Shown one piece after another: positions 3,522 to 33,259 of a stretch of 34,565 nt of DNA. The position numbers and the translations under genes are program-made. Position 1 is the first letter of the stretch, and every line of letters begins with the position of its first letter. The notes beneath the pieces were generated by a model. It was given only the letters and a program-made list of their open reading frames with translations. It had not been told where the DNA came from and made no database searches. The stretch is from a virus. Taxonomy: Duplodnaviria > Heunggongvirae > Uroviricota > Caudoviricetes. The DNA lies in IMG/VR virus record IMGVR_UViG_2537562189_000007. The stretch is one strand, 5' to 3'.

Positions 3522-4271
3522 TTAACCCGCTGCACCATCCGTGACGGTAATTTCCGCCACTGCCGCAAACTCACCATTGCCGGTAACCACAGGGATCTGC
3601 GCTTTACCTGCCGCAACACCTTTCACGGTGATCGTGTTCCCTTTCACGGTAATGGTGGCGAAATTCTGATTCGCCGACGTGGCACGGAAGGTTTTATCCG
3701 TCGCCCCTTCCGGCTGAACAGCCACGGTCAGGGTGATATTCTGACCTTTTGCCACATTGCCCGTTGGTGGCGTCACGGTAATACCGGTGACCGGTGTGAT
3801 GTCCCCCTGATCTTCCGCCAGCGACGGACGACCGATATTGGTGATTTTTACCGTACGGGTGATCACCTCTTTGGCGGTCACCGCTTTACCAATGGCGCTC
3901 ACCCAGCCACGGAACACATCCACCGTACCGTTCGGGAAGCGAATTTTGTAGGCCCGGCTCTCACTGCTGTCAAACCAGGCAATCAAATCGCGCTGCCCTT
4001 TCTCACCCGGCTTCCAGGCCAGCGTAAAACTGGTGTCACCGGCAGATTTCTGCCCCTGCCCGGTGGATACCCAGTCAGCATCCTCATCATCCAGATAGTT
4101 ATCATCGTAGGATTCTGCCGTCATCTCGCCGGGGGTCAGATCCTTCACCTTCGCCAGTCGCTGCCAGTCATCGTCTGACAACGGGTTTGCATAAGCATCA
4201 CCAGTGCCGGTGTACACCCACAGTGTGGTACCGGAACCTTTCACCGGCTCAAGAGGATTTGGTGTTGCCAT
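3522..4271 (-). CDS. V: Major tail protein V with C-terminal Ig-like domain
   Basis: 249 aa; N-terminal two-thirds track lambda gpV ([46 protein letters not shown]); C-terminal ~90 aa ([20 protein letters not shown]...[27 protein letters not shown]) has the Big_2/Ig-like pattern. Confidence 0.9.
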
Positions 4272-15194: not shown

Positions 15195-17171
15195 TCATGC
15201 CGCGGCATCCGCGTTGTTCACTTCCACCTTCACACTGTCAATCAGCAACGTATATGTCGCCGCCTTTGATATGTCTGTCAGTTGCAGTTTGTCCGCCGCC
15301 CCTGATGCCGGAGATTTCACCAGTGTGAACGGTGTACCCCGTTTCTCATCCAGTACCGGCGTCACCTGAATGCTGTTGTTTCCGGCAAACTCAAAAGCCA
15401 GTGTGTGCCATCCGTTATCAAAGACCCCGAACGTATCCAGCTTCGCATTCTGCTTCTTGTGGTACATCGCGTTCAGGTTCGTCGCATCCGTCTGCAGGAA
15501 GAAGGACATCAGCATGTCGTTGCCTTCCTCTGACAGCGTCACTCCCTCCGGCAGGGACGACAACTGCCAGTAAATACCCAGGGCAAACTGATTCGGCACC
15601 AGTGCGCCCGGCACCTTAAACCGCACGCTCACACGTCCACCTTTCTTCAGCAACTCTGCTCCCTGCCCGGCGGCATCATGCTCCAGAAACCAGATGTGGC
15701 TTTCCGGTTTGTTCAGTTGCAGGGCCTTACCACCGGTGGCACCCTCATCACTGACCACAGCCTCAGCGATGTTTTTATTAACACTGTCTCCGCTCGCCGG
15801 TTTGTGATAATAGCGCCAGCCCTGTGATGCCAGGTCTTCACCGGACGCCAGCAGACTCATCAGGGTTCGGTTACTGACCGGGGCTTCCGGCTCTCTCTCC
15901 GGGCCTTCACCGGAAGGTCCGGTGGGCTTCACCGTATCAGGCTGTTTTCCGGTAATGAATTCAGCGGTTCTCCCGGCATGCACCAGAATCGCCGTTGCCA
16001 GACGGTCGGAAATAATCCCACGGCGAGCCCATGAACTGAAATGGCTGGCCCTGTCCACAGATGTCCAGGTCTTCTGGTCATTACGCCACTTTGAACCGTA
16101 ATAACCGACGGCTTCCAGGTCCGGGTCTTCTGCCGGGTTATTGGTCTGCACATTCGCACCATTCTCATCCGTCATTAACGGTACAAAGAAAATGTTCTGC
16201 GACTCCTTCCCCTTATACCCTCCGTATACTGATGCATACCCTTCCGCATGACGCTGCTTCCAGAAATACGTTGTGTCCCCGCAAATCCACGGTACCGCTG
16301 ATGCGCTGCCTCCTGTGCTCTGTGATGCCTGACCGGCAAGCTCCGTTCTGAACTGATTCACCATCGCACTAAACAGCCCCGGATGCTGCGCATGCGTCCC
16401 CACTGCCGCATCACCTTCTCCCTGCATCCACACCACCGCAAGCAGACGGTTTTTCGGGTTCTTCGCCAGTGCGGCTTTAGTCCGGCTCACCAAATCCTGA
16501 TACAGCGGCTTACCCACACCCCAGCGCAGTGAATTTTCCGATGCACCGGCTGATTCGCTGTATGTGCCGTCTGCACCCGTTGTGAATGCCGAAGCACCAC
16601 GGCAGCACGGAACCAGCAGAATGCCCGCATTCGCCGGTATAAACGGCAGCAGTTTTTTGGCGATATGCAGCCCCTGCCCCACGGTTCCGTACTGCCCCTT
16701 TGACAGGTCCGCTTTCGGATGGTTAAGACGGCTCATGTCCTGCACATCATGCAGACAATGGTCCGCCGGAATAATGTCGTTATACTTACAGGCGGCACCG
16801 CCCGGTGTCACCGTACTGCGGCGCGCCAGCTGCTTAATACGCGGGTCCGGACGGTCATATGTCTCCGGCAGCGGAAGGCCTTCACCATACGACATGCCGT
16901 TTGACTGCCCTGCCAGAACCACAACAAAGTAATACTCCGGGTCGCTGGTGGCGCTGATTACTGTGCCTTCTCCATCCGACGGCTTCACCACCACAGGTGT
17001 GCTCACATCACCTTCTGCGACAATCGCCTGAATAAGTGCTGCGCCATCATCCGTATACGAAGAAAACGGCCCGCCGTATGGCTGCCATCCTTCACGAATT
17101 TTTTGAGCAAGTGTATCAGCAAGGTCTGACGGCGACGCCGCCCTGACCACGTCATAGTGTTTAAATGCCAT
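15195..17171 (-). CDS. nanS: Prophage sialate O-acetylesterase (NanS-p-like)
   Basis: 658 aa; N-terminal DUF1737-like segment, SASA esterase core with GQSN motif (VVVLAGQSNGMSYGEG), C-terminal carbohydrate-binding-like region; GGGAGG RBS; location between tRNAs and holin as in EHEC lambdoid prophages. Confidence 0.8.
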   Translation of the reverse strand: MAFKHYDVVRAASPSDLADTLAQKIREGWQPYGGPFSSYTDDGAALIQAIVAEGDVSTPVVVKPSDGEGTVISATSDPEYYFVVVLAGQSNGMSYGEGLPLPETYDRPDPRIKQLARRSTVTPGGAACKYNDIIPADHCLHDVQDMSRLNHPKADLSKGQYGTVGQGLHIAKKLLPFIPANAGILLVPCCRGASAFTTGADGTYSESAGASENSLRWGVGKPLYQDLVSRTKAALAKNPKNRLLAVVWMQGEGDAAVGTHAQHPGLFSAMVNQFRTELAGQASQSTGGSASAVPWICGDTTYFWKQRHAEGYASVYGGYKGKESQNIFFVPLMTDENGANVQTNNPAEDPDLEAVGYYGSKWRNDQKTWTSVDRASHFSSWARRGIISDRLATAILVHAGRTAEFITGKQPDTVKPTGPSGEGPEREPEAPVSNRTLMSLLASGEDLASQGWRYYHKPASGDSVNKNIAEAVVSDEGATGGKALQLNKPESHIWFLEHDAAGQGAELLKKGGRVSVRFKVPGALVPNQFALGIYWQLSSLPEGVTLSEEGNDMLMSFFLQTDATNLNAMYHKKQNAKLDTFGVFDNGWHTLAFEFAGNNSIQVTPVLDEKRGTPFTLVKSPASGAADKLQLTDISKAATYTLLIDSVKVEVNNADAAA

Positions 17172-17397: not shown

Positions 17398-17427
17398 GCA
17401 TGTAAAAAGGCTCCTGCGATGAGGAGC
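17397..17427 (-). terminator. Intrinsic terminator (minus strand)
   Basis: Minus strand AGGCTCCTcatcgcAGGAGCCT (8-bp stem) followed by TTTTT; back-to-back with the plus-strand terminator. Confidence 0.5.
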
Positions 17428-17456
17428 CTGGATATATGCCTAATCTCTGTATACAG

Positions 17457-17650
17457 CATGATGCCGGGTGCCTCCCGGTGAATTCTGCAATGACCAGACA
17501 GAATCCGCAACTTGCCTATACAATACGCAACCAAACATCTGTCATTATGCCCCTCCGCTCAGGGGGATTCATCATGCAGGATTTTTTTAACAAATGCTCA
17601 GCCAGACAGGCAACCGTCAACTGACTGAATTGTGAGTGATTTAACATTTC
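17457..17650. repeat. Tandem direct repeat, copy 1 (period ~269 bp)
   Basis: Shares with copy 2 the blocks catg(a/g)tgccgggtgcctcccggtga, atgcccctccgc(t/a)cagggggattca(t/c)catgc and ttttaacaaat(g/a)ctcag...gacaggcaac(c/t)gtcaactgactgaattgtgag; the middle ~70 bp is diverged. Confidence 0.6.
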
Positions 17651-17674
17651 ACTGCCCGGTGCCTTCCCCTCATT

Positions 17675-17697
17675 AAAAAGCCCCTCCGGAGAGGGGC
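17675..17697 (-). terminator. Intrinsic terminator between the two repeat copies
   Basis: Palindrome GCCCCTCcggaGAGGGGC preceded on the plus strand by AAAAA, so the minus strand has hairpin plus TTTTT. Confidence 0.55.
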
Positions 17698-17725
17698 TAA
17701 AGCCGCGTATCTGTATCATCATGCG

Positions 17726-17916
17726 CATGGTGCCGGGTGCCTCCCGGTGAGTTCAGTATCAGCACCTGAACCCGCACCAGATAAGGGATATAACCAACCA
17801 CCTGTCGCTGATATGCCCCTCCGCACAGGGGGATTCACCATGCCAGTTTCTTTTAACAAATACTCAGTCTGACAGGCAACTGTCAACTGACTGAATTGTG
17901 AGACATTTAAAATTTT
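17726..17916. repeat. Tandem direct repeat, copy 2
   Basis: See copy 1; begins 269 bp after it with the same conserved blocks. Confidence 0.6.
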
Positions 17917-18005: not shown

Positions 18006-18082
18006 TGGCGCGTTGTACTGGATTCGAACCAGTGACCGATTGCTTAGAAGGCAATTGCTCTGTCCGGCTGAGCTAACAACGC
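18006..18082 (-). tRNA. argO: tRNA-Arg (anticodon UCU)
   Basis: Minus strand folds as a 77-nt cloverleaf GCGTTGT/ACAACGC acceptor, anticodon loop CUUCUAA, T-loop GGTTCGAATCC, encoded CCA. Confidence 0.8.
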
Positions 18083-18095
18083 TGAATACCGATAA

Positions 18096-18172
18096 TGGAC
18101 CGCCATCGAGGACTCGAACCCCGCGCAACCAGCTTCGAAGGCTGACGCTCTATCCCGATGAGCTAATGGCGG
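18096..18172 (-). tRNA. argN: tRNA-Arg (anticodon UCG)
   Basis: 77-nt cloverleaf with acceptor CCGCCAT/ATGGCGG, anticodon loop CUUCGAA, T-loop GGTTCGAGTCC, encoded CCA. Gene symbol by synteny with the ileZ-argN-argO cluster. Confidence 0.7.
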
Positions 18173-18181
18173 TATGTGATA

Positions 18182-18257
18182 TGGTGGCCCTTGCTGGATT
18201 TGAACCAGCGACCTGGCGATTATGAGTCGCTCGCTCTCACCACTGAGCTAAAGGGCC
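18182..18257 (-). tRNA. ileZ: tRNA with CAU anticodon, ileX-like (tRNA-Ile2; Met not excluded)
   Basis: 76-nt cloverleaf GGCCCTT...AAGGGCC-A-CCA, anticodon loop CUCAUAA; overall close to E. coli ileX as recalled. Confidence 0.65.
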
Positions 18258-28134: not shown

Positions 28135-28506
28135 ATGGAAACAAAAGAGATTCGGCGTTTACGCCTCAAAGAGTGGTTCAAAGACAGGACTTTGCCGCCT
28201 AAAGAGAAAAGTTACTTATCTCAGTTAATGAGCGGTAAAGCTACGTTTGGCGAAAAGGCAGCTAGACGTATTGAACAAACATATGGGATGCCTGGGGGAT
28301 ATCTTGATATTGAACCAGAAGACATAACAGAGTCTCCATCATCAAGATCTATAGCATTAACCCCTAACCAATTAGAATTGCTACAAATATTTAGTGCTTT
28401 CCCTGATAATGAGCAGCAGGAGATCATAAAAGAACTAAAAAACAAAAAAGAGGCTATGGAAGATCTTGTCGCACGTTGGTTGGCACGACAAGGTCGCCGA
28501 GCCTGA
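28135..28506 (+). CDS. HTH repressor-like protein, paralog of the downstream PaaR2-like regulator
   Basis: 123 aa; N-terminal HTH; C-terminal 45 aa (LTPNQLELLQIFSAFPDNEQQEIIKELKNKKEAMEDLVARWLA) closely parallels the C-terminus of the next gene. Confidence 0.6.
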   Translation: METKEIRRLRLKEWFKDRTLPPKEKSYLSQLMSGKATFGEKAARRIEQTYGMPGGYLDIEPEDITESPSSRSIALTPNQLELLQIFSAFPDNEQQEIIKELKNKKEAMEDLVARWLARQGRRA

Positions 28507-28525
28507 CGGGATATATAGATATCAG

Positions 28526-28987
28526 ATGGGCGTACTCGAAATTAGTGCTCTTAGAATTAAGATGCTTCTATTGGCAAAAGGCTGGAGCCAAGCAGGACTT
28601 GCGCGCAGAATTGGTATTGCTCAACAATCCGTGCAACGGTGGGTTTGTGGTATCTCAAGCCCTACGGCAGCTAATCTAGATAAACTATCTGAAGTAACGG
28701 GACTTCCTCAGTATTGGTTTTTCTTACCATTAAATGAAGAAAAAAAAGACAGGGCACAGGATATATTAAAAATAACCCCTAATCAAAAGGAACTACTTCA
28801 AACATTTGAGGCATTTCCAGAGGAAGATCAACAGCAAATGCTTAAAGATATGAAGGAGAAAAAAGAAGCAATGGATCGTATAGTTGCAAGGTGGTTAGCA
28901 GCACAACAAAAAGTCAACCAAGCAGAATACCAGCACTTACAAAACGAGGTTCACCATGAACACAGCCCTTTCACCGATGGTTTCTGA
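28526..28987 (+). CDS. paaR2: PaaR2-like HTH transcriptional regulator
   Basis: Internal ATG 28526 (MGVLEISALRIKMLLLAKGWSQAGLARRIGIAQQSVQRWV...); directly precedes the antitoxin-toxin pair, as in three-component paaR-paaA-parE systems. Confidence 0.65.
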   Translation: MGVLEISALRIKMLLLAKGWSQAGLARRIGIAQQSVQRWVCGISSPTAANLDKLSEVTGLPQYWFFLPLNEEKKDRAQDILKITPNQKELLQTFEAFPEEDQQQMLKDMKEKKEAMDRIVARWLAAQQKVNQAEYQHLQNEVHHEHSPFTDGF

Positions 28988-29147
28988 ATTTGAAACTGTC
29001 GAGCAAGAAAACAGTTACAACGAATGGCTGCGTGCGAAAGTAGCAGCGAGCCTTGCAGATCCGCGCCCAGCAATTCCCCATGACGAGGTTGAGCGTAGAA
29101 TGGCAGAACGCTTTGCTAAAATGCGCAAGGAACGGAGTGAGCAGTAA
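28956..29147 (+). CDS. paaA2: PaaA2-like antitoxin
   Basis: 63 aa (MNTALSPMVSEFETVEQENSYNEWLRAKVAASLADPRPAIPHDEVERRMAERFAKMRKERSEQ), GAGG RBS; stop overlaps toxin start (TAAATG). Confidence 0.7.
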   Translation: MNTALSPMVSEFETVEQENSYNEWLRAKVAASLADPRPAIPHDEVERRMAERFAKMRKERSEQ

Positions 29148-29435
29148 ATGTTACCCGTGTTATGGCTTGAAAGCGCAGATACCGACTTGGATGATATAAC
29201 CAGCTATATTGCACGCTTTGACATAGATGCGGCAGAACGTTTATGGAAACGCTTAAGGACTTGCGTTCAGCCATTATCTGAGCATCCGTATTTATACCCG
29301 CCAAGTGACAGAGTGCCAGGTTTGCGTGAAATTGTAGCTCACCCCAATTACATTATTCTGTACCGAGTGACAATTTCAGGCATTGAAATTGTTAACGTAG
29401 TTCACGCCCGCCGACAGTTCCCTGTAACACCTTAA
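29148..29435 (+). CDS. parE2: ParE-family toxin (ParE2-like)
   Basis: 95 aa with ParE/RelE-like features (LPVLWLESADTDLDDITSYIARFD...IVNVVHARR). Confidence 0.75.
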   Translation: MLPVLWLESADTDLDDITSYIARFDIDAAERLWKRLRTCVQPLSEHPYLYPPSDRVPGLREIVAHPNYIILYRVTISGIEIVNVVHARRQFPVTP

Positions 29436-29452
29436 TCCCCCTAAAGCAAAAC

Positions 29453-29482
29453 CTTCCCCCTCTCAAGAGGGAGGGTTATTCC
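29453..29482 (+). terminator. Possible intrinsic terminator after parE2
   Basis: C-rich/G-rich hairpin (ccttccccctc tcaa gagggaggg) followed by ttatt; weak U-tract. Confidence 0.3.
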
Positions 29483-29627
29483 CGCCCATCAGTTAAGTTA
29501 GATATTGACCGTTTAGTTTATTTTTGTATAAACTAATTTCACCAACCCACCCTGCCCCACAGAACGCCAGGCAATACTTCGAGTTACCCGGCAGTGGTCA
29601 GGGGTTAAGTAGCCAGCCCGAGGCGTA

Positions 29628-29656
29628 TGAACATGACGGCGGGAACACTTTATATA
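29628..29656 (+). promoter_or_regulatory. Candidate sigma70 promoter
   Basis: TGAACA - 17 nt - TATATA, about 55 nt upstream of the 50-aa ORF. Confidence 0.3.
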
Positions 29657-29712
29657 ACAGCGCAGCAGGTTTTTAGTTCCGCGCCCCGGCGTTAAGGGGA
29701 AATGAGGTCAAC

Positions 29713-29865
29713 ATGGATACGCTCAATCTTGGCAACAACGAATCTCTGGTATGCGGTGTGTTCCCTAACCAGGACGGCACGTTTACCGCGATGACGTATA
29801 CCAAAAGTAAAAAGTTTAAAACCGAAGCTGGCGCGCGTCGCTGGTTAGCCAGAAACACTAACTGA
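29713..29865 (+). CDS. Hypothetical small protein (50 aa)
   Basis: ATG with GAGG 5 nt upstream; MDTLNLGNNESLVCGVFPNQDGTFTAMTYTKSKKFKTEAGARRWLARNTN; not in the ORF track. Confidence 0.3.
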   Translation: MDTLNLGNNESLVCGVFPNQDGTFTAMTYTKSKKFKTEAGARRWLARNTN

Positions 29866-30354
29866 TTAGCACCAGTAAAAACAGGTTGCCACTGGTTAAT
29901 TTACCCTGAAAAGTCAGGGCATAACACGAAAGCGCACGGCGAAGTTCGTATATCTGTACGGCGTCGTTAAATTTTCTTCGACCGTGCACTTCCGGTTGTG
30001 GCAATCCGCGAAATGGCGCGGCGGTAAGTATGGCTGGGGTTTCCTCCATTGCTCCAGAAAATGCACCGGGTTGTCAGGTTGACCATACGCTTAAGTGACA
30101 GCCCCGCCACAATACCCATGTGTAGTCTTTGGTGGCATCAGTTCTACTCCGTGACTGCTCTGCCACCCTTTTTAAAGTGAATTTTGTGATGCGGTGAATG
30201 CGGCTAAGCGCACGCGGAACAGTTAAAACCGTAAAGTGGTCTTTTACTGGCGTAACAGACATCAACTAACAATCCGGCGTTAATTGTTAACTGGTTAACG
30301 TCACCTGGAGGCACCAGGCACCACATCACAAAATTCATTGTTGAGGACGCGATA

Positions 30355-30543
30355 ATGGAAACGTCACTACCAAACGTTAATACGTCTGAAGGGTGTTTTA
30401 ATATTGGTATTCTGCTCAGTAACCGGGAGTTTACTGAGGACGCCATCAGGATGAGAAAATATGAGCCTTATCTTCTCAATGATAATTCCATACTCTCCAG
30501 AATTGCCCTTCTTGAACTTGGCATTTTCGGAGGGCAGCAGTGA
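30355..30543 (+). CDS. Hypothetical small protein (62 aa)
   Basis: ATG with GAGGA RBS; stop overlaps the next gene's GTG (GTGA). Confidence 0.35.
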   Translation: METSLPNVNTSEGCFNIGILLSNREFTEDAIRMRKYEPYLLNDNSILSRIALLELGIFGGQQ

Positions 30544-30728
30544 GTTCAGCGTTTGCACTGATGATGACGGTTTTTCTTATAACAGGTGAGCCACAGAATG
30601 TGATTACCGGAATTTATGCCAGTAAAGGATCCTGCCTCCAGGCAAGAGACGAGCAAAAAATTTCTGGTGAATGTCTCCCGTTAAACAAAGTATCGCTGTA
30701 CCTGAATAACGAAACACCGGCTGGATAA
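30540..30728 (+). CDS. Hypothetical small protein with hydrophobic N-terminus
   Basis: GTG start preceded by GGAGGG; MSSAFALMMTVFLITG... then two Cys (signal-peptide-like). Confidence 0.4.
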   Translation: MSSAFALMMTVFLITGEPQNVITGIYASKGSCLQARDEQKISGECLPLNKVSLYLNNETPAG

Positions 30729-30823: not shown

Positions 30824-33259
30824 ATGAGTAAAATATTTATTTGCGCCGCCATTCCTGACGAACAGGCAATAAAAAACGAGGGCGCTGTTGCTGTGGCCAC
30901 TGCCATTAAAGCCGGTGATGAACGTCGCGCCCGCGCAAAATTTCACTGGCAATTCCTTGAACATTATCCGGCTGCTCAGGACTGCGCTTATAAATTTCTT
31001 GTCTGTGAGGATAAACCCGGTACACACCGCCCAGCCCTCGACTCCTGGGATGCTGAATATATGCTGGAAAACCGCTGGGATGAGGAGTCTGCTTCCTTTG
31101 TCCCGGTTGAGACTGAATCAGATCCTATGAACGTCACTTTTGACAAGCTGTCCCCTGAAGTACAGAACGCTGTCATGGTTAAGTTCGATACATGTGAAAA
31201 CATCACCGTTGATATGGTGATTAGCGCACAGGAATTGTTGCAGGAAGACATGGCAACCTTCGACGGACATATCGTTGAAGCGTTGATGAAAATGCCAGAA
31301 GTTAACGCCATGTATCCGGAGATTAAACTGCATGCCATCGGGTGGGTTAAGCATAAATGTAAGCCTGGTGCCAAATGGCCAGAAATTCAGGCAGAGATGC
31401 GCATCTGGAAAAAACGTCGCGAAGGTGAACGCAAGGAAACCGGAAAATACACGTCTGTTGTTGATCTCGCCCGCGCCAAAGCCAATCAACAGTACACTGA
31501 AAATTCAACAGGAAAAATCAGCCCGGTCATTGCTGCCATTCATCGCGAATACAGGCAGACATGGAAAACACTGGATGACGAACTGGCCTACGCTCTCTGG
31601 CCTGGTGATGTGGATGCCGGAAACATTGACGGCAACATCCATCGCTGGGCAAAAAAAGAAGTTATCGACAACGACCGCGAAGACTGGAAGCGTATCTCGG
31701 CATCAATGCGCAAACAACCTGATGCACTTCTATACAGCCGTCAGACTATTTTCGGCCTTGTTCGTGAACGTCCGATCGACATTCATAAAGATCCCGTGGC
31801 GCTGAACAAATACATCACTGAATACCTGACTACAAAGGGCGTATTTGAACATGAAGAAACAGACCAGAGCCCTGCTGATGCTCTCCACCTGTCAGCAGAA
31901 CAAACTGATTCAGTGGAGACGGCAGAATCCGATACTCAAAAAAATGAAATCCTGGTGGAAGCTGAACCATCTGTAGAGCGTGAAGGGCCTTTTTATTTCG
32001 TCTTTACCGATAAGGACGGGGAAAAATACGGTCGCGCAAACAAACTTTCTGGTCTGGACAAGGCGCTGGCTGCCGGGGCTACTGAAATCACGAAAGAAGA
32101 ATATTTTGCCCGCAAAAACGGCACATACACGGGCTTACCGCAAAATACAGATATATCTGAACATTCAGAACAACCAGAGCCGGTAAAAGTTACCGCTGAC
32201 GAAGTAAACAAAATTATGCAGGCAGCCAATATCAGCCAGCCTGACTCCGATAAGTTGCTTGCTGCATCACGTGGTGAGTTTGTTGAAGGGATTAGCGACC
32301 CGAATGATCCGAAATGGGTGAAGGGGATTGAAACCTGCGATTCTGTGAACCAGAACCAGTCAGAAACGGAACAGAACGACCAAAAAGCGGAACAAAACAG
32401 CCCAAATGCGTTACAAGACGAGCCAGAAACGAAACAATCCGAACCAGTAGCGCAACAGGAAGAGGAAAAAGTCTGTACCGCCTGCGGTCAGAGCAGTGGC
32501 GGCAACTGCCCTGATTGTGGCGCGGTGATGGGCAACGCAACCTACCAGGAAACACTCGATGAAGAAAATCAGGCTGCAGCTCAGGAGGAAATGGAAGGCT
32601 CTGGCGGCGATCACTACCACACCACAGATAATGAAAGTGGCGAGACAGCAAATCCCTTAATTAAGGTGAACGGTCATCGTGAAAGCACATCCACCAGCAG
32701 GTTGTGGCACCATCTGATGATTGACCTTGAAACAATGGGCAAAAATCCTGATGCCCCAATAAACGCTCTGGCCGGTAAGTTTTTTGATCCGGCAACCGGA
32801 GAGATGGGGCCAGAATTCAGCAAAACTATCGATCTGGAAACCGCAGGCGGAGTCATCGATCGGGACACCATTAAGTGGTGGCTGAAACAGTCACGGGAAG
32901 CACAATCAGCCATTCTGACCGATGAAATCCCGTTGGATGACGCACTGTTGCAATTACGGGAATTTATCGACGAAAACTCCGGTGAATTTTTTGTTCAGGT
33001 CTGGGGAAATGGAGCCAACTTCGACAACGTGATTTTACGCCGTTCATATGAACGGCAGGAGATCCCCTGCCCGTGGCGTTACACCAATGATCGTGATGTA
33101 AGAACGATTGTTGCCCTGGGGCTGGTGATGGATTTCGATGCTCGAAGTGTCATCACATTTGAGGGTGAACGCCATAATGCCCTGCACGATGCGCGTTACC
33201 AGGCAAAATACGTTTCAGCTATCTGGCAAAAACTGTTCCCGAATCAGGCTGATTTTTAA
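30824..33259 (+). CDS. Multidomain exonuclease with C-terminal DnaQ-like (DEDDh) 3'-5' exonuclease domain
   Basis: 811 aa; C-terminal ~180 aa carry Exo I (LMIDLETMG), Exo II (VWGNGANFDNVIL) and Exo III (HNALHDARYQAKY) motifs; upstream acidic linker and a Cys4 cluster (CTACGQSSGGNCPDCG); occupies the recE/exo position of the early-left operon. Confidence 0.75.
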   Translation: MSKIFICAAIPDEQAIKNEGAVAVATAIKAGDERRARAKFHWQFLEHYPAAQDCAYKFLVCEDKPGTHRPALDSWDAEYMLENRWDEESASFVPVETESDPMNVTFDKLSPEVQNAVMVKFDTCENITVDMVISAQELLQEDMATFDGHIVEALMKMPEVNAMYPEIKLHAIGWVKHKCKPGAKWPEIQAEMRIWKKRREGERKETGKYTSVVDLARAKANQQYTENSTGKISPVIAAIHREYRQTWKTLDDELAYALWPGDVDAGNIDGNIHRWAKKEVIDNDREDWKRISASMRKQPDALLYSRQTIFGLVRERPIDIHKDPVALNKYITEYLTTKGVFEHEETDQSPADALHLSAEQTDSVETAESDTQKNEILVEAEPSVEREGPFYFVFTDKDGEKYGRANKLSGLDKALAAGATEITKEEYFARKNGTYTGLPQNTDISEHSEQPEPVKVTADEVNKIMQAANISQPDSDKLLAASRGEFVEGISDPNDPKWVKGIETCDSVNQNQSETEQNDQKAEQNSPNALQDEPETKQSEPVAQQEEEKVCTACGQSSGGNCPDCGAVMGNATYQETLDEENQAAAQEEMEGSGGDHYHTTDNESGETANPLIKVNGHRESTSTSRLWHHLMIDLETMGKNPDAPINALAGKFFDPATGEMGPEFSKTIDLETAGGVIDRDTIKWWLKQSREAQSAILTDEIPLDDALLQLREFIDENSGEFFVQVWGNGANFDNVILRRSYERQEIPCPWRYTNDRDVRTIVALGLVMDFDARSVITFEGERHNALHDARYQAKYVSAIWQKLFPNQADF

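Follow-up and report, generated by a model that had tools for sequence, protein, structure and literature searches.

Identity and distribution of the region

The DNA analysed here is a stretch of 34,565 nucleotides (nt) from a virus of the Caudoviricetes (IMG/VR record IMGVR_UViG_2537562189_000007), which we call the window, and the element in question is the gene-poor region at positions 29436 to 30354. This region is almost certainly the promoter-proximal (5') half of a dicBF operon of the kind found in the Qin prophage of E. coli K-12, in a form that lacks ydfB and ydfC, and it lies on the PL side of a lambdoid prophage. In profile searches ydfA (PF07151), the small RNA (sRNA) DicF, dicB (PF05358) and a ydfD-like DUF1482 gene (PF07358) were all found on one strand and in the K-12 order, with ydfA upstream and dicB and ydfD downstream of dicF. 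This is the well-known dicB/DicF cell-division-inhibitor operon, a subject of research since the late 1980s, and as a locus it is already known and adds no new element. The only parts that go beyond current descriptions are an STnc100-like RNA domain in the spacer between DicF and dicB and a highly conserved untranslated leader.

A preliminary description of the same DNA had called the region gene-poor and had suggested that it holds regulatory RNA or binding sites. Both were found, namely the DicF RNA at 30116-30168 and a predicted PL-type promoter/operator at 29505-29536, and the Rfam search that the description had proposed settled the identity with a DicF match (RF00039) of 61.1 bits. The region has few genes since DNA control sites and RNA account for most of it, but it is not free of genes, ydfA being a conserved one. 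Identity of the parts, homology, and conservation or covariation are observations on the window copy itself.

A DNA match to the region was found in 4732 of 5426 complete E. coli genomes, and in 1918 of these at least 80% of it was covered; within the region RefSeq labels only the DUF1391 protein in the matching E. coli genomes. The DNA matches phages as well, among them Tritos, which has the same layout with DicF annotated. DNA identity to K-12 Qin (L001) was 87% on the ydfA side and 79.5% on the other side of the missing ydfBC. Window positions 29675-29856 correspond to L001 2970-3152, which is ydfA, and 29901-30459 correspond to L001 3655-4214, a stretch that begins 228 nt before dicF and runs into dicB. 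The layout without ydfBC was also found in other genomes at 94-96% identity. ydfB and ydfC are likewise missing from E. coli 2012EL-2448 (NZ_CP027586, hereafter L002), a close relative with a different immunity.

DicF and its precursor

The following features, all on the plus strand, make up DicF and the transcript just upstream of it.

30116-30168, plus strand: DicF sRNA, 53 nt (Rfam RF00039, E = 3.2e-11)
30131-30137 with 30161-30167, plus strand: DicF terminator stem (GGTGGCA/TGCCACC, then CTTTTT), with the U-tract at 30169-30173
29927-29994, plus strand: H1, a long imperfect hairpin (minimum-free-energy and alignment folds)
29995-30113, plus strand: rest of the precursor, in which a stem (29995-30002 with 30106-30113) encloses further hairpins

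The Rfam match covers model positions 1-52 of 52 at 30117-30168, and its score is to be compared with a gathering score of 48 bits. The 3' two-thirds of DicF is conserved relative to K-12, including the terminator, in which the two changes in the stem are compensatory. The hairpin followed by a run of T that had been noted earlier at this place is real, and it is part of the above-threshold match and is the DicF terminator. The ftsZ-pairing core ACTCCGTGACTGCTCTGCC is identical to that of K-12 and there is one U-to-C change just upstream of it. From K-12, DicF is known as an Hfq-dependent regulatory sRNA. The duplex energy of whole DicF with ftsZ was not discriminating, as 54 of 300 shuffles were as good.

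In K-12 the 5' end of a 190-nt DicF precursor is made by RNase III and the 53-nt DicF is made by RNase E (PMC10448788), and RNase III acting on the full-length mRNA yields a 72-nt DicF (PMC5069750; PMC9438474). In the window, 29866-30175 folds with z = -3.0 relative to dinucleotide shuffles. By analogy H1 is the predicted RNase III site, and counting back would place the 5' end of the 190-nt precursor at about 29979-29983; this position, 190 nt before the 3' end of DicF, is in the 3' arm of H1, in agreement with the published end. The arms of H1 and the stem 29995-30002/30106-30113 were nearly invariant in 29 homologues, and the hairpins enclosed by this stem include GGGTTGTCA...TGACAGCCC at about 30069-30107. 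When covariation was examined in 29901-30116 the sequences were too alike for a test and little covariation was seen. The precursor structure is best taken as a model that draws on folding energy and conservation and is not independently proven.

In five viral contigs (L010, L044, L056, L059 and L072) the DicF slot holds terminator hairpins with a similar stem (for example GGCGGCATCAG…CTGATGTCCGCC) and a different loop or seed, and in these the gene downstream is not dicB.

ydfA and the missing ydfB and ydfC

29713-29865, plus strand: ydfA, 50-amino-acid (aa) DUF1391 protein, first gene of the operon (PF07151, E = 1.5e-29; phrog_751)
29857-29900, plus strand: junction in place of ydfB-ydfC, which take up about 500 bp in K-12 and most relatives (alignment to L001)

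The 50-aa open reading frame (ORF) with a ribosome-binding site that had been pointed out in the preliminary description is ydfA. GAGG stands 5 nt before its ATG and its DNA is 87% identical to K-12 ydfA. Among relatives ydfA varies most at third codon positions (column identity 0.94, 0.93 and 0.83 at positions 1, 2 and 3), and because of this pattern and the DUF1391 match we regard it as a real gene. No solved structure matched YdfA, and no description of its function was found in the literature. It was also correctly stated that no ORF in 29436-30354 exceeds 80 aa on either strand: the longest, at exactly 80 aa, is on the minus strand at 30204-30446, overlaps the dicB start and had no family match. 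Apart from ydfA and a frame at 29524-29676 that is discussed below, the seven ORFs of 43-80 aa tested had no PHROG match.

The 44-nt recombination junction has no homology to L001 3153-3654 and is common to only about 4 of 50 related viral loci. The two other hairpins listed earlier, like the DicF terminator, are at the places given for them. ACCAGT/ACTGGT (29872-29877 with 29891-29896) is within the junction, and CCCTGA-AAAG-TCAGGG (29904-29919) is beside it. These two are poorly conserved in relatives.

Predicted promoter, operator and upstream terminator

29505-29536, plus strand: PL-type promoter/operator (consensus scan, inverted pair with the cro-side promoter, geometry in L002)
29455-29472, strand not set: hairpin directly after the ParE toxin gene, at a terminator position analogous to lambda tIMM

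The promoter has TTGACC (29505-29510) as its -35 hexamer and either TATAAA (29527-29532) or TAAACT (29529-29534) as its -10 hexamer, and a perfect 9+9 palindrome, TTAGTTTAT-N6-ATAAACTAA at 29513-29536, overlaps it and is the predicted operator. Transcription is predicted to start at about 29541. Positions 29505-29534 are an 80% inverted 30-nt copy of the minus-strand promoter at 28095-28066 that faces the cro-like gene, which, judged from the sequence, points to an arrangement of the OL/OR type. In L002 the two promoters at the same positions also resemble each other and have sequences of their own. Among relatives, the common leader is joined at about 29541 by some 15-20 promoter/operator modules that are unrelated to one another and have -35 and -10 hexamers of their own. 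The consensus scan of the region gave four promoter-like sites compared to 5.3 in shuffles, which is no excess, and the operon promoter was placed at 29505-29534 because of the comparative evidence, that is the inverted pair, L002 and the converging modules. The helix-turn-helix (HTH) repressor gene at 28135-28506 matches phrog_5736, and CI-like control of the promoter pair by its product is predicted. In K-12, DicA acts through lambda-like operators to repress dicBp (PMC10448788).

The hairpin after the toxin gene was called terminator-like for the minus strand, and its plus-strand version has one C-A mismatch and a weak run of T. The homologous site in L002 is a canonical plus-strand hairpin followed by TTTTTTT.

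The spacer between DicF and dicB is an STnc100-like domain

Downstream of the DicF terminator the following elements were found.

30178-30337, plus strand: structured spacer domain, about 160 nt (inverted repeat, fold, covariance model)
30178-30196 with 30319-30337, plus strand: P1, closing duplex, a 19-nt inverted repeat that is 95% complementary
30197-30199, plus strand: J1/2, AAU
30200-30204 with 30210-30215, plus strand: P2, with A30212 bulged
30220-30226 with 30287-30293, plus strand: pseudoknot, CAGTTAA/TTAACTG
30276-30283 with 30295-30302, plus strand: P4
30304-30308 with 30314-30318, plus strand: P5, with loop AGGCA

The spacer forms a pseudoknotted domain that is supported by covariation and shares homology with the core of STnc100, a prophage sRNA, and this is apparently unreported: in the open-access literature we found no report that links STnc100 to the dicBF spacer and none of a structure in the spacer. 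STnc100 has been described as a prophage sRNA related to PasD and without established function. Positions 30169-30354 fold with z = -4.3 relative to dinucleotide shuffles. The Rfam STnc100 family (RF02076) matches 30166-30387 at 31.5 bits, which is below its gathering score of 47 bits and was all that a permissive scan of 29400-30400 gave beyond DicF, and the spacers of K-12, Tritos and L002 likewise gave sub-threshold matches of 31-34 bits. When a covariance model (R1) was built from only the core of 22 STnc100-type elements, it matched the window spacer at 62.4 bits (E = 3.5e-13), K-12 Qin at 66.1 bits (E = 4.4e-14) and Tritos at 68.9 bits (E = 9.1e-15), E-values that are to be read as rough; HK022 gave no match. 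A scan of viral contigs with the shared motif TCACCNGGAGGCACCNGGCAC returned 143 sites, which fell into two classes. Class 1, with CCUGG/CCAGG, is found downstream of DicF or of DicF-like terminators, and class 2, with CCGGG/CCCGG, is of the STnc100 type. The motif is present in many genera of Enterobacterales.

In an alignment of 31 sequences the common structure pairs 82.5% of cells compared to 66.7% in shuffles, of which none in 500 reached the observed value, and slid controls gave 38-44%. P1, P2 and P4 were paired in 92%, 99% and 91%, respectively, with 5, 3 and 6 pairs changed on both sides. P5 is constrained by the search pattern except at its central pair, the one informative position, where only U-A and G-C occurred. 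The Rfam register of P2, with a U-A closing pair, was tried and set aside in favour of the bulge model, as the bulged position varies freely. For the pseudoknot, which joins the strand after P2 to the loop of P4, the mean complementarity was 7.2 between a sequence's own segments and 4.9 between mismatched partners, and scores of at least 5.5 were reached by 93% of own and 27% of mismatched pairs, with many different sequences taking part. The junction and loop nucleotides were invariant, which suggests a specific macromolecular partner. The closing stem is 6-9 bp in the STnc100 type and 19-22 bp in the dicB type; in L031, L036 and L084, where the domain is located after a CI-type repressor gene, a closing duplex of 21-22 bp is kept with a wholly different sequence. 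The spacer domain is more conserved than the adjoining DicF slot.

Compared with STnc100 and PasD, the spacer shares P1, the GGUGAAU junction, P2 with a UNNGC loop and one bulge, the pseudoknot between J2/3 and the P4 loop, P4, and P5 as CCNGG-AGGCA-CCNGG abutting P1, and all of these are supported by compensatory changes. It differs in that it lacks the 5' leader and the 3' seed/terminator part of STnc100, is embedded in a polycistronic mRNA, has its closing stem extended to the lengths given above, and belongs to the early-left operon, whereas at the loci examined the STnc100-type copies are in the late region from Q to holin. Thus the spacer domain, which has no terminator of its own and stands in the PL operon before dicB, is not a stand-alone late-region sRNA. 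Among the STnc100-type copies that were looked at, most have an intrinsic terminator after them and, where genes could be named, Q is upstream and holin downstream. At the loci examined the core fold of STnc100 is found near the start of two phage operons, namely after PL and between Q and the lysis genes.

The window also has two tandem full-length STnc100 copies on the minus strand (17398-17606 and 17668-17872; 183 and 146 bits), with three tRNA genes (18009-18257, minus strand) and a DNA methylase gene on their upstream side and a 658-aa ORF (15195-17171) after them. With this pair and the spacer domain, the window holds three copies of one RNA fold in two operons. L002 has the toxin-antitoxin (TA) module, leader, ydfA, DicF and spacer domain of the window, but isrK (63.5 bits), C4 antisense RNA (79.3 bits) and a Rha-family gene are inserted there after the spacer domain (3861-4062) and separate it from dicB, so that the arrangement looks like a stack of modular RNA cassettes. 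The likeness to the immI antisense RNA systems (c4 of P1/P7 and sar of P22) is that in L002 isrK, C4 and a Rha/Ant-like gene come directly after the STnc100-like domain, and because of this arrangement RNA cassettes of the immI type can be seen as neighbours in the same modular region. The window differs in that it has neither c4 nor isrK and dicB follows directly.

What the domain does is a matter on which we have a tentative proposal only. It may be a third RNA of the operon, in which RNase III cuts on both arms of P1 to give a stable RNA of about 140 nt of the STnc100 family with its own partner or function, or else it may act in cis on dicB. By analogy with K-12, the predicted RNase III cut that gives the 72-nt DicF would be at 30187/30188; the 72-nt form fits P1 because the DicF 3' end plus 19 nt falls inside the P1 5' arm. 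The 5'-arm cut is documented for K-12 (PMC5069750), and the R1 scores in both the window and K-12, the compensatory changes and pairing above controls, the complementarity of the pseudoknot segments, the invariant junction and loops, the long closing duplex that is kept in unrelated sequence, and the conservation beyond that of the DicF slot all speak for it. Against it, the 3'-arm cut is inferred, STnc100 itself is without an established function, no RNA of about 140 nt from the K-12 operon is described in PMC10448788, PMC5069750 or PMC9438474, and the conservation could reflect the needs of RNase III processing and dicB translation alone.

The leader and alternative readings of the region

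29541-29712, plus strand: untranslated leader of the PL transcript (conservation among relatives)

The first 30 nt of the leader are C-rich (16 C and 4 G). Its core, 29561-29640, is almost invariant, with a column identity of 0.966 compared to the values given above for the codon positions of ydfA, and over many immunity types the leader shows stronger conservation than ydfA, which is apparently unreported. K-12 Qin lacks 29545-29674, an extra segment of about 130 nt. The leader folded with z = +1.1 and +0.3 relative to shuffles and shows no excess structure, and a permissive scan of 29400-30400 found no Rfam family at threshold in it. A search for a second copy on the PR side or elsewhere in the window returned only chance matches of 9-14 nt. 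That the leader loads Rho or has another co-transcriptional role is only a guess. The leader segment TGGTCAGGGGTTAA at 29595-29608 is complementary at 13 of 14 positions to 28357-28370 and 28773-28785, one site in each HTH gene; about one such match is expected by chance and paralogy of the HTH genes doubles it, so that this is probably a coincidence.

The leader comes directly after PL, a place taken by nutL in lambda and by putL in HK022, which raises the question whether the leader, or the hairpin at 29904-29919, is an antitermination site of the nut or put type that acts on DicF and later terminators. The strong conservation of the core across immunity types and the absence of an N-like gene would agree with this, and CCCTGAAAAGTCAGGG has a superficial likeness to a boxB hairpin. 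However, no resemblance to putL/putR of HK022 was seen by eye, no Rfam family reached threshold in that HK022 region either, there is no twin copy in the window, K-12 Qin expresses the operon without the segment, and the hairpin, in which AAAG forms a loop of 4 nt, is poorly conserved. Folding energy is uninformative on the kind of element, as the true HK022 putL gave z = -0.37. We consider an antitermination site very improbable. As specific candidates, an HK022 put antiterminator was rejected since neither similarity to putL/putR, as judged by eye, nor a pair of copies in the window was found, and a lambda-type nut site was rejected since the stretch from PL to the exonuclease gene has no N-like gene and the AAAG tetraloop hairpin is not conserved. 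The preliminary description had placed its plausible promoter inside the leader, at 29628-29656, where TGAACA (29628-29633) and TATATA (29651-29656) stand 17 nt apart. These letters are present, but they match only 4/6 and 4/6 and were not reported by the consensus scan, and the comparative evidence moves the promoter about 120 nt further upstream. A second, internal promoter for ydfA and DicF at this site, for which it can be said that a -10-like hexamer persists there in relatives as TTTAAT and that part of the site is inside the highly conserved block, is unlikely, considering that the -35 is AGAACA in most relatives and that dicBp is the sole promoter found in K-12 (PMC10448788), although K-12 is without the segment.

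It is highly unlikely that the region hides small protein genes beyond ydfA, of which a 50-aa frame at 29524-29676 and a 22-aa frame at 29627-29695 are the candidates. The first of these does match phrog_19140 (E = 2e-31), but its TTG start overlaps the -10 hexamer, ahead of the predicted transcription start and in sequence that varies with immunity; the frame has no start codon further downstream, most of its homologues have an in-frame TAA (GCG TAA GAA), and it is probably spurious. As for the second, 14 of 19 related leaders have an ATG at the place of 29633 that reads in frame into ydfA, giving 76-78 aa (MTAGFNFNNYAAGF…), but this extension is broken in the window, the DUF1391 profile spans only the short form of ydfA, and in both the window (29627-29695) and L002 there is a separate 22-aa frame that is not joined to ydfA. 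The absence of ydfBC and the rarity of the junction might also be read as signs of a decaying, non-functional remnant in a cryptic prophage. This is extremely improbable, since every block other than the junction is conserved in a large number of phages and prophages, next to neighbours that are intact, the substitutions in ydfA show a coding pattern, DicF is above the Rfam threshold, and the same layout recurs in other genomes at the identities given above. The identification as the 5' half of a dicBF operon is thus the reading that we retain.

Comparison of the operon with K-12, lambda and HK022

Compared with the Qin operon of K-12 (dicBp-ydfA-ydfB-ydfC-dicF-dicB-ydfD), the gene order, the PL side and the position downstream of a CI-like repressor gene are alike, and homology extends over the long untranslated stretch on either side of DicF, together with the DicF terminator and the hairpins that stand at the published RNase III sites. 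Unlike K-12, the window has a TA module between repressor and promoter and the extra leader segment described above. The other differences weigh against the identification with the dicBF operon. The window lacks ydfB and ydfC between ydfA and dicF. Its repressor is not DicA, and its operators, which are different from those of K-12, are predicted only. The first 13 nt of DicF differ from those of K-12, and because of this the targets of the 5' seed (xylR in K-12), and also the RNase E site, may differ. To these is to be added that the terminator after the TA module is weak on the plus strand, so that read-through from the immunity transcript is possible, and that the published biology of dicBF explains neither the function of the STnc100-like domain nor that of the leader.

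The early-left region of lambda (PL-nutL-N with OL/OR) is similar in having a repressor-controlled leftward promoter paired with a similar rightward one, a long structured leader that is cut by RNase III just before the first toxic or regulatory gene, and an accessory module between the repressor gene and PL, which is rexAB in lambda and the TA module in the window. It differs in that no N gene, boxA or boxB was found in the window and that the leader contains ydfA together with an sRNA that has a terminator of its own. HK022 is alike in being a lambdoid phage without N, with putL at the same position at the start of the early operon, and unlike in the respects given above.

Proposed course of events

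The processing steps are known from the K-12 literature, and the cut sites, transcription start and repression would apply to the window copy by analogy. In a lysogen the repressor (28135-28506) is expected to sit on the operator that overlaps the PL-type promoter. Upon derepression, transcription would run from about 29541 through the leader, ydfA, the structured stretch and DicF, and the DicF hairpin and U-tract would terminate most transcripts. RNase III would cut the long hairpin upstream of DicF, after which RNase E would trim the product to the 53-nt DicF, which would pair with ftsZ and other host mRNAs. In transcripts that read through the DicF terminator, the multi-helix pseudoknotted domain closed by the 19-bp duplex would form, and a cut by RNase III in this duplex would yield the 72-nt DicF and leave a new 5' end a little ahead of the dicB ribosome-binding site. 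A further cut by RNase III may occur in the 3' arm, which would release the RNA of about 140 nt and free the dicB ribosome-binding site; in the minimum-energy fold this site pairs weakly with the U-tract region.

Neighbouring genes

30343-30347, plus strand: dicB Shine-Dalgarno sequence, GAGGA
30355-30543, plus strand: dicB (PF05358, E = 7e-34), with which the gene-poor stretch ends
30540-30728, plus strand: ydfD-like DUF1482 gene (PF07358)
30824-33259, plus strand: 811-aa exonuclease, annotated so in relatives
28956-29435, upstream of the region: PaaA2-type antitoxin and ParE toxin

The 811-aa protein carries an Rv2179c-like 3'-5' exoribonuclease domain at its C terminus (PF16473, E = 3e-60) and has a long acidic middle of low complexity. 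Before the TA pair there are two HTH genes and a divergent YdaS/YdaT pair on the cro side. The HTH_3 gene (28466/28550-28987) precedes the antitoxin and toxin, and these three look like a three-component module of the paaR-paaA-parE kind. The HTH_3 protein and the upstream 123-aa repressor-like protein (28135-28506) have a similar C-terminal half (…TPNQ.ELLQ.F.AFP…KKEAM..…VARWLA).

Significance

The identification of the region in itself matters little, since it rediscovers the DicF/dicB locus that is present in most E. coli genomes. What it brings is that the untranslated spacer of a classic operon is tied to the functionally uncharacterised STnc100/PasD family, and that the structural model of the STnc100 family is improved by the revised register of P2 and by the pseudoknot. 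It also draws attention to an ultra-conserved PL leader, which was never studied because it is absent from K-12. We put forward, as a possibility to which we give rather less than even weight, that the dicBF operon, in the window as well as in K-12 Qin, carries an unrecognised member of the STnc100/PasD core, from which RNase III excises an RNA of about 140 nt or which regulates dicB in cis, and that the leader at 29561-29640 is a second functional element. The reading of the spacer as a third RNA of the operon predicts that such an RNA, excised by RNase III, would be found in K-12.

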